IMG/VR virus record: IMGVR_UViG_2974628631_000001
Span: 61,727 to 125,726 of that record
Length of the DNA: 64,000 bases
Origin: a virus
Lineage: Duplodnaviria > Caudoviricetes
Strand: one strand, 5' to 3'
Position 1 is the stretch's first letter; each line of letters begins with the position of its first letter. A model generated the notes under the pieces. That model made no database searches. It was not told the origin of the DNA and worked only from the letters and a program-made list of their open reading frames with translations. Made by a program: the position numbers and the translations under genes. Positions 15,046-57,146 of the stretch are shown in pieces.

Positions 15046-15579
15046 TGGACTGGCAAACTAAGGCTTTTCTTATCTGTATCGCAGTGAGTGTCGTTTGCAA
15101 GATTGGAACGCTTCTGCTACGCTCTACAGAGCCGGAAGAGCCTGAGACTGTGGTTCCAATGAATCGAGCGCAGAGGCGACATCCCAAGGGAAGAGTTCCT
15201 GCGCAAAGGTTCGGAAGGCAGAACCAGGCTATTAAGATGAAGCCGGGCAAGGGTGGCTCTCATCGCAAGTTCGTAAGGTAGTATGTGCTGGGAGGAAACT
15301 CCCAGCAAGCTTGTCTAACTAAGGAATGAAATGAATTACGAAGAGATTATCGACGGTTACAATGAGCTTCGTGAGCGCTGCCTTGAATTGGCAAAGGCTA
15401 ACAATGGTGCCCTGATGGATAATGGCGCTTGGTTCATGACTGCTATTATGGAATCAGATATCACGCTCGATTATTCAGAGGGTGGAATTCATGGTTGGGG
15501 CAATGCTTATACTACTCAAACCCTGACCACCGAATACTTCAGCTTTGTTATCCCGTTTGAACTGCTTGAGGAGAAGTAA

Positions 15580-16470
15580 ATGCTAGAGCTGGTTATTAAT
15601 CGCGGAATTCCCGGAAGTGGCAAGTCTACTTTCGCTGAGGCATGGGTGAATTCCGCAAATGGCCGAGTGCGCAGTAACCGAGATGACATTCGTCTTTCTG
15701 GATACGGCGTTGAGTTCGGTCCGCCTATCGATGAGAAGGTTGTTACGGAGATTCAGCACGCTGGAATCCGGGCCGCACTTTCCGCCGGGGTTTCGGTTAT
15801 TGTTGATGACTGCAACATTGAGCAGAAGTACATCAATACTCTTGCCCGAATTGGATACGAGTACGGAGCAGAGGTTTCCATCAATCTGATTGATGTTCCT
15901 GTTGCTGTCGCTCTTGAGCGTAACCGTATCCGAAAGGACCATGGAGGACGCTTTGTTCCTGAGAATGTGATTGTATCTATGCATTCTCGACTTCAGGGTC
16001 TTAAGAATGTCAGCCTTCCGGAGCGAATCGTATTCAATAAGTACACTGGATACAGCAAGAATCCTGAGGCTGTCATGGTTGACATTGATGGTACGCTTGC
16101 TAAGATGACTCGTAGGGGTCCATTCGACTGGCTTCGTGTTGGTGAGGATGAGCCTATCGAGAGGGTTATTGAGATTGTCAACCTGTACTGGAGTGCTGGC
16201 AAGAAGATTGTGGTAATGTCTGGTCGTGACAGCGTTTGCCGTGAGCAGACGATTGAGTGGCTTGACAAGAACCTTGTCCCATGGGATGCTCTTTTCATGC
16301 GTCCCGAGAAGGACATGCGAAAGGACAGTATCGTCAAGCACGAACTGTTCTGGGCACATGTCGCTCCGTTCTACAATGTTCAGACTGTTCTTGATGACCG
16401 TAAGCAGGTTGTAGACATGTGGCGAGAGATTGGCCTTACGTGCTTCCAGGTTGCGCCGGGTGATTTCTGA
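15580..16470 (+). CDS. pseT: polynucleotide 5'-kinase/3'-phosphatase (T4 PseT-like)
   Basis: P-loop GIPGSGKST, RDD; HAD DIDGTL, SGR, DDR. Confidence 0.93.
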   Translation: MLELVINRGIPGSGKSTFAEAWVNSANGRVRSNRDDIRLSGYGVEFGPPIDEKVVTEIQHAGIRAALSAGVSVIVDDCNIEQKYINTLARIGYEYGAEVSINLIDVPVAVALERNRIRKDHGGRFVPENVIVSMHSRLQGLKNVSLPERIVFNKYTGYSKNPEAVMVDIDGTLAKMTRRGPFDWLRVGEDEPIERVIEIVNLYWSAGKKIVVMSGRDSVCREQTIEWLDKNLVPWDALFMRPEKDMRKDSIVKHELFWAHVAPFYNVQTVLDDRKQVVDMWREIGLTCFQVAPGDF

Positions 16471-16723
16471 TGGAACTATTTGGAGCATCCTGTCTGACAG
16501 TTATCGCAGCAATTGCCATTATGTGGTGCATCGGAATGCCTTGGCTTGCGCTAGGGTTTGGTGGTCCATCAATTGGTAATTGGGCTTGGATGATTGGCGG
16601 ACTTGTGGTAGCGTCTGCTATCGCTGTAGGATGGTGGAACTTCGTGGGCACAAACATTCATTTCAGCTTCGGTTGAAATGCGGCGGGTTGTTGTTTAGAC
16701 CCGCCAAGCTGAAAGGAGATAAA

Positions 16724-17002
16724 ATGCAAACAGTAGACATCACACTTGATGTAAATCAAGCACGACTGGTAAAGCGTATCCTTGAGAATCACGTGTCTTC
16801 GGATGTAAAAGAGCTTCGTCGGATTGGTGACGCTATCCATGCAATCGAGTATAGTGTAGATAGATTGTGGGACGAAAAGCATGACCAGGACGCTGAATGC
16901 ACTTGTGGGCATGTTTACCACAGGCATTTTGATTCCTATGAAGACATGTACCCTATCGGCTGTAAGTATTGTGAGTGTGATACATTTGAGCAACGCGTTT
17001 GA
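16724..17002 (+). CDS. hypothetical protein (C-terminal Cys/His motif)
   Basis: RBS aaggag after hairpin element. Confidence 0.65.
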   Translation: MQTVDITLDVNQARLVKRILENHVSSDVKELRRIGDAIHAIEYSVDRLWDEKHDQDAECTCGHVYHRHFDSYEDMYPIGCKYCECDTFEQRV

Positions 17003-17731
17003 GTTCTTTGAGGCCCAGTGGCAAGAGCCTGTTTGGGATGCACTGAGTGAGACTGAGAAGCTACTCCTTGTTCACGAGGCGTATGCTGAGAAGCAGTTCC
17101 GCGAATGTGATGGACATGCTTGGACTCTGGTGGTAGACTGTGGTCAGGCAAGTATCCAGTGTGTCAATTGCGAGGGCAGCTTTGAATATATCGCTGGACC
17201 AGACTACCAAGACATGATTAACTGTGAGGTAGACATTTACTACCCACGCATCGAGATTGAGATTTCTGGCTCATACGACAACCCCGAGCGGGAACCTGTG
17301 CTAGAATTCTACACAGAGCATCCGGAAGATTTGTCGGGTTGCGCTTACTTCCAAGGTAAGGGAACATGTTCCTATGGCTGTTGGGAAGAGCCTAGATGTC
17401 AGACAGACGAACCTTCTGAAGGTTGGCCATCGGAGCGATTTAAGGACACGCCTTGAAGCAATATCCAAGTCCAGATAACTTCATGGACATTGTAGTCACT
17501 CAGCATGAAGAAGACTTCACAAAATGGCGGGTTGTTGGTGTTACTGTAGACTGGGATGCAGTCAAGCAGCTAGACATCGAAACAGACTTTTCCAACAAGG
17601 CGCTTGCAGAAGCCTTCATCAGAGGGTATACTGATAAGTACGTAAGAAGGAACTTCTTCGAGTGAACGATTGGGGCTTCGGCCCCAAGCTTGACAGACCA
17701 CTACAAAGTCTGTTATGATTGATAACATCGA

Positions 17732-55273: not shown

Positions 55274-55669
55274 ATGAAGCTCTTCGGTAAGAAGCTTGAC
55301 AAGGTTCCTGACCAGCGTAAGATTGAAGAGATGGAGATTGAGCTTGGTCTCACTCCCATCGTAACGGAAGAGAATTTCGAGCGGGAGTTTGACAGGGCTC
55401 TCATCAATGATTATCGTGAGAGGTTCGAGAAGTCTTGGATTGAAGCTGAAGCTTATATCAGTCGTTACTACGCTCGTCACAAGTATTACCGTGATGACAA
55501 TGAGGAGCGTGCAAGGAAGCGGTGGAATGAGAAGGTAAGCGAAACCGCTCGTAAGGCTTTTGAAGAGACTTTGGCTCTTCTGATTCAGGAGTCAAGTCAG
55601 GAAGAGTTCCAAAAGGAATTTGACCCGAATCACAAGGATAATTACCGTTCGTACCACTCTTACTACTAA
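55274..55669 (+). CDS. hypothetical protein
   Basis: RBS gaggt; N-terminus similar to 55727..56089. Confidence 0.7.
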   Translation: MKLFGKKLDKVPDQRKIEEMEIELGLTPIVTEENFEREFDRALINDYRERFEKSWIEAEAYISRYYARHKYYRDDNEERARKRWNEKVSETARKAFEETLALLIQESSQEEFQKEFDPNHKDNYRSYHSYY

Positions 55670-56154
55670 AATTGAATAGGGGCTATGGCCCCAAGCTGAC
55701 GGGTCCTCCGGAAACATGGAGCTGAAGTGAAGATTCGGATTCGTAATTCTGCTATCGTAAACCCGCGCAAGCCTGATTACGATGCAATCAGCAAGATGGA
55801 GAAGGAATTTCTTGGTGAGTTCCCTTCATTTGAAATCAAGTACAACGAAATGCTGATTAAGGATTTCGAGAATCGTAAGAAGAATGGCAACTGGCCTGCA
55901 CGACAGGTTATGCTTGAGCTTGGCTATCTAAGCGAAGAGCTTTGCGATACTTCACAGCGATTCGATATCCTTCGTAAGTATTCCATGTGGCGTAAGGCTT
56001 ACTACGAAAGCAGGATGAACGACCCTGAGAATCGTAAGCGGTATGACGCTCTGCGCTCTCGTATGATGCGTGGAAGGCAGTGGCGTTAAAATCGCGGGGG
56101 TTGAAAAACCCCAAGCTTGTAATACCCCATCGTAAATAACATAAGGAATGTATT

Positions 56155-56454
56155 ATGAAGCGCATTGCTGCTCTCACTGCCTCTGTCGTTGCTGGTTCGG
56201 TCCTTCTGACCGGCTGTGGTGACCTTGGTGGTAAGCCTGTAAACCCGCCTGCAAAGGGTATGGTTTATGAGCGTGAGGAGTCGCTTGATTCCACTGGTCA
56301 CAAGGTCTATGAGCTTAGCCTCACCACTGACCGAAAGGCTATCCGTCGTAAGGCTTCCCGTTCTGGCAATTCTTCCAAGAAGAAGGACATTACGGTGAGC
56401 GAGAAGGTCTACAAGAATTGTGGGCTGACGGAAATGTACCCTGCTTGTAAGTAA
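56155..56454 (+). CDS. lipoprotein
   Basis: signal peptide with lipobox LLTGC. Confidence 0.8.
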   Translation: MKRIAALTASVVAGSVLLTGCGDLGGKPVNPPAKGMVYEREESLDSTGHKVYELSLTTDRKAIRRKASRSGNSSKKKDITVSEKVYKNCGLTEMYPACK

Positions 56455-57146
56455 GGGTATGGGGCGAAAGCCCCAAGCTTCAAAAACTCTGGGCTAAAAA
56501 GGAGCCATCGTAATGGCAGTTCTCACGTACACTGTTGGTCGTCTGCGTCGCAAGGAATTCCGAGCGACCCTTTCCGAATTCAGTATGAGGGAAAAGATTG
56601 ACCAGTACGAAGAGGTCAAGGGATTTTTCGATTCACGATTTGTAGTTGATGCCAGCATTGACAATCACGTCGAAATCATCAAGTCTCTTGGCGTAAATCT
56701 TACAGAGTAAAAAACTCTGGGCATATTTTCGACCATCGTAAATGCAAAAATTCTGGGTGTTTTTGAGACCATCGTAAAGGGGTACCCCGGCCCATTGTAG
56801 CAACCACTGTACCACGGTACAAACCGTGGTACAAAGCTGAGGTTGGTTGAAGGTTCAACAGTTCAATCCTAAAAGGTTGAATCCCGAACTATCCAGCCGT
56901 CTGAATGTTGAACGTTGAACTACCTGCGCCGACTGGGATTGTACCAACCAATGTAGCAATACAAATGTTGATACAATCCGGGATTGTTGAAAGCTCAACA
57001 ATCAAAGGCTAAGAGGTTGAACGTTCAACAACTTTTTGTGTTATCAATTGTAGCAATACAAAGACTGGTACAAAGCCGGTCGGCCAGACTTGTTGAACAT
57101 TCAACGGTCAAGCCTTGCAATCGTTCAATTTTGTACATCCACAGCA

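Follow-up and report, generated by a model that had tools for sequence, protein, structure and literature searches.

What kind of signal is written when gene after gene is followed by a different hairpin and the same few letters? The question is raised by a 64,000-nucleotide (nt) stretch of the IMG/VR virus record IMGVR_UViG_2974628631_000001 (the window; bases 61,727-125,726 of a 125,726-bp record with direct terminal repeats), in which about 50 GC-rich hairpins run directly into AAGCT or AAGCTT, here called the foot. We read this composite element tentatively, with a probability of roughly 45%, as a module that goes with the upstream cistron and provides a 3' end or a processing site on the sense-strand RNA. 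Positions are those of the window unless stated otherwise, and the phage is called the query phage.

The records nearest to the query phage are those of the Streptomyces phages Beuffert (87% identity over 84% of a 20-kb query sequence) and Blueeyedbeauty (86%), both classified as Stanwilliamsviridae, Loccivirinae, Annadreamyvirus, and the window is the right arm of a large (125.7-kb) Streptomyces phage of the Loccivirinae. The window has about 48% G+C and a positive GC skew throughout, and it carries 30 transfer RNA (tRNA) genes and one transfer-messenger RNA (tmRNA) gene. In Beuffert, virion and replication genes occupy the left arm, while the right arm, which is the counterpart of the window, is taken up by tRNAs and by some 150 small genes; most of these have no known function, and nearly all lie on one strand.

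The two strands of the window together hold 269 copies of AAGCT, compared with 141 ± 11 in 100 dinucleotide-preserving shuffles, none of which reached 269. A perfect hairpin of at least 5 bp (G·U allowed) abuts 61 of the 134 copies on the plus strand versus 13 of the 135 on the minus strand. When at least four G-C pairs were demanded and the whole 125,726-bp genome was scanned, 52 elements were found on the plus strand and 1 on the minus strand, all but three of the elements in the genome falling at 75-120 kb. In 100 dinucleotide shuffles of the window, the mean was 0.34 and the maximum 2 elements, versus 50 observed. The G-C filter removed 10 of the 61 lenient hairpins, which had few G-C pairs and lay in tRNA or coding sequence (e.g. 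6896, 20949, 43802). Counting rules differ slightly between analyses, the total for the query phage being 49-52, and the final list holds 49 elements in the window (span 11878-56839), 47 of them within 15287-56480. These counts bear out a preliminary description of the window, which had put about 50 elements into that range; its limits are the first base of the first and the last base of the last element inside, and the four hairpins it quoted were all found (15287, 17672, 53906 and 54710). Hairpin-less AAGCT, in contrast, was found 73 times on the plus strand of the window, where about 70 copies are expected by chance. Therefore, the foot alone is neither enriched nor avoided, and the caveat of the same description that AAGCT also occurs inside coding sequences is justified. 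The elements, with two variants, are as follows.

11878-11909 (+), element: 8-bp stem, 10-nt loop, AAGCTT
15287-15312 (+), element: 8-bp stem, GAAA loop, AAGCTT
16682-16711 (+), element: 8-bp stem, 8-nt loop, AAGCTG
17672-17691 (+), element: 5-bp stem, TTCG loop, AAGCTT; the foot gives the TT of a TTGACA -35 (AAGCTTGACA)
18032-18055 (+), element: 7-bp stem, TTCG loop, AAGCTT
19259-19282 (+), element: 7-bp stem, GAAA loop, AAGCTT
21306-21327 (+), element: 6-bp stem, GAAA loop, AAGCTT; 222-nt cassette of Beuffert at the foot
23284-23303 (+), element: 5-bp stem, TTCG loop, AAGCTT
24269-24288 (+), element: 5-bp stem, TTCG loop, AAGCTT; Beuffert homology ends at the foot
24478-24497 (+), element: 5-bp stem, TTCG loop, AAGCTT
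31251-31270 (+), element: 5-bp stem, ATAC loop, AAGCTT
31807-31826 (+), element: 5-bp stem, TTCG loop, AAGCTT
32165-32185 (+), element: 5-bp stem, 5-nt loop, AAGCTA
34096-34122 (+), element: 8-bp stem, GTAAA loop, AAGCTT
35539-35567 (+), element: 10-bp stem, TTGACA at the apex, AAGCTC in the promoter spacer
35838-35865 (+), element: 9-bp stem, CGTA loop, AAGCTT
36552-36571 (+), element: 5-bp stem, TTAG loop, AAGCTT
37279-37300 (+), element: 5-bp stem, 6-nt loop, AAGCTG
38797-38816 (+), element: 5-bp stem, GAAA loop, AAGCTT
39152-39179 (+), element: 9-bp stem, GTAA loop, AAGCTT; the foot gives the TT of a TTGACA -35
40004-40031 (+), element: 6-bp stem, 10-nt loop, AAGCTT
42707-42740 (+), element: 8-bp stem, 12-nt loop, AAGCTT
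42949-42968 (+), element: 5-bp stem, TTCG loop, AAGCTT
44089-44114 (+), element: 8-bp stem, TTGACA at the apex, AAGCTT in the promoter spacer
44400-44429 (+), element: 10-bp stem, TTGACA at the apex, AAGCTT in the promoter spacer
45331-45352 (+), element: 6-bp stem, TTGACA at the apex, AAGCTA in the promoter spacer
46363-46394 (+), element: 10-bp stem, 6-nt loop, AAGCTT
46581-46602 (+), element: 6-bp stem, GACA loop, AAGCTG
47078-47097 (+), element: 5-bp stem, GCAA loop, AAGCTT
47356-47375 (+), element: 5-bp stem, GAAA loop, AAGCTT; Blueeyedbeauty homology ends at the foot
47978-48022 (+), element: 18-bp stem, TTGACA at the apex, AAGCTA in the promoter spacer; orthologues in 7 phages covary
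48632-48651 (+), element: 5-bp stem, TTAG loop, AAGCTT
48883-48902 (+), element: 5-bp stem, TTCG loop, AAGCTT; Blueeyedbeauty has 674 nt more, both ends on feet
49816-49845 (+), element: 8-bp stem, 8-nt loop, AAGCTT
50065-50090 (+), element: 8-bp stem, TTCG loop, AAGCTT; Beuffert junctions on both sides; foot downstream of a -10 hexamer (+30)
50608-50648 (+), element: 12-bp stem containing TTGACA; TAAGCT is also the -10 hexamer
50807-50844 (+), element: 13-bp stem containing TTGACA; TAAGCT is also the -10 hexamer
52154-52177 (+), element: 7-bp stem, GCAA loop, AAGCTT; homology to both close relatives ends at or just past the foot
52425-52445 (+), element: 6-bp stem, TTT loop, AAGCTT
52766-52787 (+), element: 6-bp stem, GAAA loop, AAGCTT
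53173-53198 (+), element: 8-bp stem, GAAA loop, AAGCTT; Blueeyedbeauty homology begins at the foot
53906-53927 (+), element: 6-bp stem, GAAA loop, AAGCTT
54414-54439 (+), variant: 8-bp stem, GCAA loop, one-mismatch foot GAGCTT
54710-54744 (+), element: 12-bp stem, 5-nt loop, AAGCTT
54893-54919 (+), variant: 7-bp stem, one additional A ahead of AAGCTT
54924-54952 (+), element: 7-bp stem, 9-nt loop, AAGCTG
55220-55243 (+), element: 7-bp stem, GAGA loop, AAGCTT
55679-55698 (+), element: 5-bp stem, TATG loop, AAGCTG
56097-56118 (+), element: 6-bp stem, GAAA loop, AAGCTT
56461-56480 (+), element: 5-bp stem, GAAA loop, AAGCTT
56808-56839 (+), element: 11-bp stem, ACAA loop, AAGCTG

We examined the anatomy of the element on 479 copies in ten Loccivirinae genomes, six of which (Sham, Faust, Gilson, Moab, Muntaha and BillNye) were scanned from base 60,001 to the end for most of the ten-genome counts; orthologous copies are not independent, and these pooled counts overstate the sample size. 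Stems are 5-13 bp long, with one of 18 bp, and in the query list both stem and loop sequence differ in nearly every copy. In 94% of copies the foot is preceded by C, and in 96% the stem starts with G; therefore, the helix is nearly always closed by a G-C pair. Tetraloops make up 321 of the 479 loops, with GNRA or UUCG in 234 of the 321 (24 of 35 in the query phage), and the median hairpin energy in the query phage is -10.4 kcal/mol. UUCG, mostly with a C-G closing pair, and GNRA tetraloops are extra-stable RNA loops. The foot follows without a spacer, as had been described, with just two exceptions among the GC-rich hairpins, one displaced by 1 nt (54893-54919) and one with a changed letter (54414-54439). 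Its sixth base is T in 79%, and at the next three positions T falls to 16-28%, which agrees with the reported absence of a U-tract; no positional conservation was found from +6 to +45 downstream of the foot. When hairpins were picked solely by their position 3-10 nt after a stop codon, 387 of 541 carried an exact AAGCT and 10 a foot with one mismatch, and purifying selection therefore acts on every letter.

The element is also tied to the end of the gene in front of it. Within the 40 nt upstream of the stem, 452 of the 479 copies have a stop codon that ends an open frame of 40 codons or more. The gap between stop codon and stem is 4-8 nt in 346 cases, with a mode of 6 (135) followed by 7 (98), and a gap of 0-3 nt occurs in 7 only. 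This spacer has no conserved letters in the ten genomes, so the distance is what is kept, and the sites in the same genomes where a hairpin is followed by a T-tract show no peak in stop distance. Spacing on the other side is less strict: by crude gene calls, the next start codon lies a median of about 25 nt beyond the foot. By these calls (a crude open reading frame (ORF) heuristic, for which the labels for coding and intergenic sequence are approximate), 47 of 51 elements in the query phage are intergenic, consistent with the described position between a stop codon and the next ribosome-binding site. On the ribosome, messenger RNA (mRNA) enters and meets the helicase site about 11-13 nt from the first base in the P site, the same spacing as for frameshift stimulators. 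With this geometry, a stem 6-7 nt past the stop codon would stand just outside a ribosome that has the stop codon in its A site.

Which strand folds can be seen from the imperfect pairs. With isolated non-Watson-Crick positions allowed inside otherwise Watson-Crick stems (383 elements), 34 such positions were G·T or T·G, one was A·C and none was of another kind; the excess of G·T over A·C therefore indicates that the plus strand is the folding strand. Together with the UUCG and GNRA loops and the tie to the stop codon, this bias points to sense RNA rather than DNA. Further evidence came from orthologous sites with both flanks conserved, of which 94 of 98 kept hairpin and foot, 68 with an altered hairpin. 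Compared with the query phage, 650 stem pairs were unchanged, 125 were changed on both sides and 28 on one side; this count sees only hairpins that still pair, losses being covered by the 94 of 98. In the family at 47978-48022, a MAFFT alignment of seven relatives has pairing in 100% of its cells, and 4 of 11 pairs are changed on both sides, with a covariation score that was reached in 0 of 500 shuffles. When the partner was slid by 1-3 columns, pairing fell to 40-63%. These data, together with the zero spacing and the near-invariant foot, give good support to the earlier proposal of a reader that recognises a folded single strand together with a fixed 3' foot.

All ten Loccivirinae sampled, from the five genera Annadreamyvirus, Faustvirus, Gilsonvirus, Wakandavirus and Wilnyevirus, have the element, with 37-56 copies on the plus strand versus 1-7 on the minus strand. 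Of the Boydwoodruffvirinae, which belong to the same family, Coruscant has 1 copy and Warpy 0, and between the right-arm genes of these two phages stand ordinary terminators of hairpin and T-tract, with TTGACA often coming next. A scan of IMG/VR for an exact 20-mer element returned four contigs only, which we took as Loccivirinae isolates already sampled. The terminal repeats of Coruscant (1-12,100 and 121,900-133,600) and of Warpy carry a minus-strand composite of their own about every 0.5-1 kb, in which a GGGCCC-type hairpin with a UUCG loop adjoins a conserved palindrome, TGGCGC-CGG-GCGCCA. It is a different punctuation of hairpin and fixed box in the sister subfamily.

The promoters of the right arm bear on two alternative readings. 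Matches to TTGAC[AT]-N16-19-TANNNT number 57 on the plus and 7 on the minus strand of the whole genome, mostly at 58-117 kb, and the right arm therefore looks like a region of early transcription by the host polymerase; no phage RNA polymerase or sigma factor is found among the annotations of the Beuffert record. Such a strict promoter overlaps 10 of 51 elements, the other 41 being without one. In the overlaps, the foot supplies the TT of the -35 (17672, 39152), is itself the -10 as TAAGCT (50608, 50807), lies inside the promoter spacer with TTGACA in the hairpin apex (35539, 44089, 44400, 45331, 47978) or, in one case, stands downstream of the -10 hexamer (50065, +30). Ordinary hairpin plus T-tract terminators are present at about a dozen clear sites in the genome, mostly in the left arm. 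Therefore, hairpin plus foot is a distinct class, most copies of which must be read through. Several promoters have their -35 in a hairpin apex, for example that of an ordinary terminator at 26000-26029. At 34344-34373, 14 nt separate an ordinary terminator (GGGGCTAGGGA-GAAA-TCCCTAGCCCT-TTTT) from a downstream AAGCTT that stands free; no other case of a foot parted from its helix was seen.

A strong terminator is thus unlikely, given the promoter overlap of 10 in 51 and the T-tract terminators elsewhere in the genome. A leaky or factor-dependent terminator or attenuator, in which AAGCUU, read perhaps by a factor of phage or host, replaces the U-tract and insulates small early units or grades their expression, is also an unlikely explanation, if one to be taken seriously. 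As in an intrinsic terminator, a GC-rich sense-strand hairpin of terminator-like stability (median -10.4 kcal/mol) comes just past the stop codon, with the foot exactly in the position of the U-tract, and sigma-70-like promoters are dense enough in the right arm (57 versus 7) that many short units are conceivable. There is, in contrast, no U-run after the stem, and a specific hexamer is no known requirement of intrinsic termination. Mycobacterial RNA polymerase is said, after work by Czyz et al. in 2014, to need a U-tract in vitro. Moreover, ordinary T-tract terminators exist in the same genome, and with promoters at 10 of 51 elements and no -10 signal downstream, most downstream genes need read-through. 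Term-seq in Streptomyces found, according to the available text of PMC8269248, a class of transcript ends that have stable 3' hairpins but lack a U-tract; this class resembles our element in its GC-rich, stable sense-strand hairpins just past genes. That text reports no motif for the class, whereas here an invariant hexamer is present and T-tract terminators are separate.

The promoters also recall a known type of phage element. The promoter-early and promoter-middle stem-loops (PeSLs and PmSLs) of T4-like phages were reportedly described by Arbiol et al. in 2010. As set out in the accessible parts of Comeau et al. 2014 (PMC4122927), PeSLs are likewise intergenic composites of a stem-loop and a short conserved box, followed by the Shine-Dalgarno sequence and start codon of the next gene; they lie in plastic regions of small unknown ORFs, at insertions, deletions and replacements between close relatives, and, like our element, have been proposed as joints for cassette shuffling. 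The statement that no description of the element was known has therefore to be qualified: PeSLs are a close published analogue, and the element itself was not found described. Full-text literature searches, with subscription journals and genome announcements mostly outside their coverage, returned no description of it, and in a preprint on Loccivirinae genomes the terms terminator, hairpin, motif, promoter and stem-loop are absent.

In a PeSL-like reading, AAGCT would be a -10 of ANNNT type or the box of a phage activator, and each cassette would bring a terminator and a promoter. AAGCT does fit the minimal actinobacterial -10 ANNNT (in the portion of PMC6448022 available), TAAGCT stands at -10 distance from TTGACA at 50608-50648 and 50807-50844, and the layout and the link to insertions and deletions are as in PeSLs (PMC4122927, as far as its available text goes). 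The conserved part of a PeSL, however, is there described as a full sigma-70 promoter (-35, N17, -10) or a Mot box plus -10, whereas here a single invariant hexamer abuts the stem, with no positional -10 and with promoter overlap at 10 of 51 elements. The register of the foot to full promoters is variable (-4, +11 to +19, +24 and +30), its three middle letters are invariant, unlike those of a sigma-70-type -10, and there is no -35 or other positional signal. Zero stem spacing, G-C closing, RNA-type loops and a fixed stop distance are not promoter properties, and the fixed stop spacing, G-C closing and UUCG or GNRA loops lie outside the description of PeSLs in that text. We regard this reading as highly improbable. 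A promoter at fixed spacing downstream of the foot was considered separately and ruled out, no positional signal being present from +6 to +45.

The elements coincide with breaks in homology between related phages. We searched the two 300-nt flanks of each query element in the relatives and found many elements with just one flank conserved. The first five stem nucleotides were shared in 19 of 40 orthologues that conserve only the upstream flank versus 3 of 40 that conserve only the downstream flank, which indicates that the hairpin travels with the upstream gene. In alignments anchored on the foot, identity either runs through gene, spacer, hairpin and AAGCTT and then collapses, or starts at AAGCTT. 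When the whole arm was compared by chained alignments with the two closest relatives, 18 of 86 break ends fall within a few bases of a foot, where about 1% would be expected by position; in an all-against-all comparison, 26 of 44 junctions conserved downstream start at -9 to 0, and 24 of 36 conserved upstream end at +5 to +14. In Beuffert, a 222-nt insertion sits exactly at the foot of 21306-21327; it begins with a leader and a 180-nt ORF, after which come a 7-nt gap, a 4-bp hairpin with a TTCG loop and a second AAGCTT. Thus, when breakpoints of gene gain and loss are set against the motif, as the preliminary description had proposed, junctions and cassette indels sit exactly on AAGCTT. A single predicted gene occupies 26 of the 47 foot-to-foot intervals.

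These junctions are what a DNA-level site would also leave, that is, a folded single strand or a hairpin plus palindrome at which a dedicated enzyme moves single-gene cassettes in the manner of attC or of repetitive extragenic palindromic (REP) sequences and their RAYT transposases. Besides the junctions, the clean cassette indels between two feet, the single-gene intervals and the palindromic nature of AAGCTT accord with such a site, and the G·T bias fits a single-stranded top DNA strand equally well. On the other hand, 68 of the 86 break ends lie away from feet, and exchange by short homology or copy choice, followed by selection, can explain the same joints. The annotation of the close relative Beuffert lists no gene for an integrase, an HUH protein or a transposase-like protein; in particular, no tyrosine integrase is annotated in the whole Beuffert record, no dedicated profile search having been made. 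RecA-, RecB-, RuvC- and DprA-like proteins are encoded by the phage. Short perfect stems, UUCG or GNRA loops and a fixed stop distance are features of RNA and ribosomes that a DNA site does not need, and the foot also ends larger predicted RNA domains (see below). We consider a DNA-level site quite unlikely as the primary function. Of the earlier idea of a single-stranded DNA recombination site, the cassette joint is supported, while the junctions do not demonstrate a dedicated single-stranded DNA recombinase, which is possible.

Integron attC sites have paired R and L boxes (R''/L''-L'/R'), a GTTRRRY core and extrahelical bases, and the IntI integrase acts on the folded bottom strand; no such feature was seen in the present case. 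They resemble the present element in that structure is kept and sequence is free, with a short core at the cassette boundary, one orientation and mostly promoterless single genes. In contrast, the stems here are perfect and free in sequence, the foot is one-sided and the loops are of RNA type. Other signals share the many oriented intergenic copies, namely REP sequences, the stoperators of mycobacteriophages and the sites of RNase III and RegB. REP copies consist of a hairpin and a short foot and share their stem sequence, whereas here stem and loop vary in nearly every copy, and no transposase is annotated in Beuffert. Stoperators are asymmetric duplex operators of 13-14 bp for the mycobacteriophage repressor, in contrast to just 6-7 conserved letters here. 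T7 RNase III needs long stems and T4 RegB cuts GGAG; a role in stabilising or processing polycistronic messages is known for REP hairpins and for the sites of T7 RNase III. To our knowledge, none of these signals combines a short hairpin of free sequence with an invariant 3' hexamer. We rate the element as belonging with composite stem-loop boundary elements or intercistronic processing signals.

The co-inheritance of hairpin and upstream gene also bears on a third alternative, an RNA operator, in which a protein of phage or host would bind hairpin and AAGCUU without cutting and control translation of the next gene or uncouple the cistrons. The element lies a median of about 25 nt before the next start codon, has RNA-level signatures and a near-invariant single-stranded foot, and is confined to one subfamily, all of which would suit an operator. 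An operator for the next gene does not, however, account for a hairpin inherited with the gene upstream (19 of 40 versus 3 of 40), nor for a start-codon distance that is variable where the stop distance is fixed. We hold this reading to be very unlikely.

In addition to simple hairpins, the foot was said to close domains of non-coding RNA at 4373, 11425, 11758 and 11904 and to precede a tRNA-like RNA at 10521. This held at two of these places, where a predicted closing helix runs straight into the foot:

11370-11430 (+), predicted 55-nt two-hairpin RNA domain: closing helix runs straight into AAGCTT; conserved only in Beuffert
11672-11763 (+), predicted 86-nt multi-branch RNA domain: closing helix runs straight into AAGCTT

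In predicted folds, base -1 of the foot pairs 55 nt upstream at 11425 and 86 nt upstream at 11758, and this long-range pairing is stable in every fold that reaches the partner (60-220 nt at 11425; 100-220 nt at 11758). The closing helix at 11758 covaries in two relatives, its pairing surviving several two-sided changes in Beuffert and Blueeyedbeauty. At 11904, in contrast, the foot belongs to an ordinary element, and at 4373 and 10521 it pairs in only one long-range fold. Rfam names tRNAs and tmRNA only in the claimed non-coding RNA regions. The stretch after the tmRNA gene has promoter-like TTGACA/TANNNT sites at 11072, 11331 and 11523 and four AAGCTT in about 1.4 kb, and Rfam assigns no name to anything in it. 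The site at 11331 (TTGACA/TAGACT) lies just upstream of the first domain, and the structured domains in 11331-11430 and 11523-11763 are possibly small RNAs.

In ten genomes, here scanned whole, 14 post-stop hairpins are followed within a few bases by the 5' end of a tRNA instead of a foot. The 5' end of a tRNA is the site of RNase P, and an RNase P site thus stands where other genes have AAGCTT. In the window, GC-rich post-stop hairpins, often with UUCG, lie 3-5 nt before tRNA 5' ends at 13040-13070, 13770-13798, 18615-18634, 27400-27422, 29175-29197 and 30885-30906. The foot as a tRNA 3' trailer was ruled out, AAGCT following 0 of 31 tRNA and tmRNA genes. Between tRNA-Ile and tRNA-Ser, at 4237-4372, a T-arm-like GGTTCGAATCC is followed by a D-arm-like GTAGCTCAATGGGTAGAGC; ARAGORN and Rfam called no tRNA there. 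A gene for a Ro-like RNA-binding protein is annotated in Beuffert (record 68904-70520) upstream of the tRNA and tmRNA cluster, so a Y-RNA-like or tRNA-like RNA at 4237-4372 is conceivable. The Rfam tRNA model also scores 9664-9735 (35.3 bits) and 51766-51833 (31.9 bits; gathering threshold 29), both without an ARAGORN call.

Post-stop hairpins in these genomes are thus followed by a T-tract, a tRNA 5' end or AAGCUU. Since two of these three are known to create an RNA end at that point, an endonucleolytic cut at the foot is the most economical guess for the third. In the proposed order, the stop codon is followed by 4-8 nt, a hairpin of free sequence closed by G...C, a single-stranded AAGCUU and a leader of about 25 nt with a Shine-Dalgarno sequence. 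Host RNA polymerase would make long early transcripts from the many sigma-70-like promoters, and a factor that reads a helix end plus AAGCUU would cut them in or beside the foot. A hairpin, which may stand right in front of a ribosome halted at the stop codon, would thereby form the end of the upstream message and protect it against 3' exonucleases, and the downstream message would begin with a short leader. The cutter may be host RNase E or a protein exclusive to the phage subfamily. On DNA, a by-product would follow: the foot beside its hairpin is the only sequence common to unrelated cassettes, and therefore becomes a joint for gene gain, loss and replacement. Accordingly, the preliminary suggestion of a processing signal that cuts polycistronic transcripts is favoured by the RNA features and the stop distance of 4-8 nt, and the cleavage step of it is what we infer.

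RNase E is a candidate because of its preferred site. The sites at which mycobacterial RNase E cuts follow RN|CNU; over 85-90% of those mapped have C at +1, and they are enriched between genes and in 5' leaders (available portions of PMC10641625 and PMC6448022); stem-loops near sites can direct E. coli RNase E, according to the discussion in these papers. By inspection, AAG|CUU fits R at -2, C at +1 and U at +3 of this preference, and cutting at that point would give the hairpin a tail of 3 nt. The mycobacterial preference is loose, whereas the foot is near-invariant and absent from another subfamily on the same host genus.

Several points weigh against this processing module. The RNase E preference is not only loose but mycobacterial, not from Streptomyces, while the letters of the foot are nearly invariant. 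The Boydwoodruffvirinae infect the same host genus with 0-1 elements and T-tract terminators, and a general host signal predicts otherwise. Hairpin-less AAGCT is not depleted on the coding strand (73 versus about 70), and the foot without a hairpin is thus not potent as a signal for cleavage. Ensemble predictions give a mean probability of just 0.48 that the foot is unpaired. The ribosome-edge view of the 6-nt spacing draws on general ribosome geometry. Finally, what was observed is anatomy, strand bias, covariation, conservation and junctions, and from these we infer that the RNA is cut, what cuts it and that the message is stabilised.

The invariance of the foot, its absence from the Boydwoodruffvirinae and the lack of AAGCU depletion make a subfamily-specific reader a live option. 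Pursued further, this option leads to a private punctuation code of the Loccivirinae, in which any helix end plus AAGCUU would be recognised by such a reader and the unit of expression on RNA would equal the unit of exchange on DNA. The reader could be a shape-plus-sequence endoribonuclease or RNA-binding protein, or a DNA structure-specific nuclease or recombinase. We judge such a code improbable, to much the same degree as a leaky terminator. Candidate readers are 26 ORFs present in 10 of 10 Loccivirinae and absent by tblastn from the two Boydwoodruffvirinae. A Pfam scan of 25 of them (p51764_51874, of 36 aa, was left out) gave matches above the curated cut-off to C5 DNA methylase, RNase_T exonuclease, DNMK, SsgA and zinc ribbon, and below it to Macro, KTSC, HNH, DUF4258 and DUF5447, while 15 of the 25 matched no Pfam family. 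The DUF4258-like protein (Pfam E 0.003, below the cut-off; Atlas lead 0.85) is annotated as a BrnT-like toxin in Beuffert. PDB sequence searches with four candidates returned nothing with E below 0.04, and none of the 26 was tied to the element by the searches run.

Subfamily-specific genes lie at G000 1455-2126 (-) and 59408-59899 (+) and at window 39383-39769, 45392-45784 and 20832-21296, a set that includes a short C5 cytosine DNA methylase, an RNase_T-family exonuclease and an SsgA-like sporulation or division protein. The DUF4258-like (BrnT-like toxin) protein and a weak Macro-domain match also belong to the subfamily-specific genes. In base composition, two parts of the window stand out with a G+C of 0.53-0.55 versus about 0.48: 40001-42000, which contains an Lsr2-like gene region, and 58001-62000, beyond the last element and toward the terminal repeat.

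With about 50 copies per genome and a near-invariant foot in at least five genera, the signal must have a reader. If this is host RNase E, the elements would be sharper than any natural substrate of the actinobacterial enzyme so far, and ready-made parts for transcript ends and cistron insulation in Streptomyces engineering. If the reader is encoded by the phage, a new shape-plus-sequence recognition system for RNA (or DNA) would be at work, and, should the private code be true, the phage would have an integron-like system of cassettes but no integron. For the 3' ends of bacterial messages, the fixed 6-nt gap that separates the hairpin from the stop codon offers a design rule that can be tested. 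Either way, the elements give a nucleotide-exact view of the accessory genes of large actinophages as exchangeable cassettes, and carry the idea behind PeSLs over from the T4-like phages, which have Gram-negative hosts, to an unrelated family of siphoviruses that uses a different mark.

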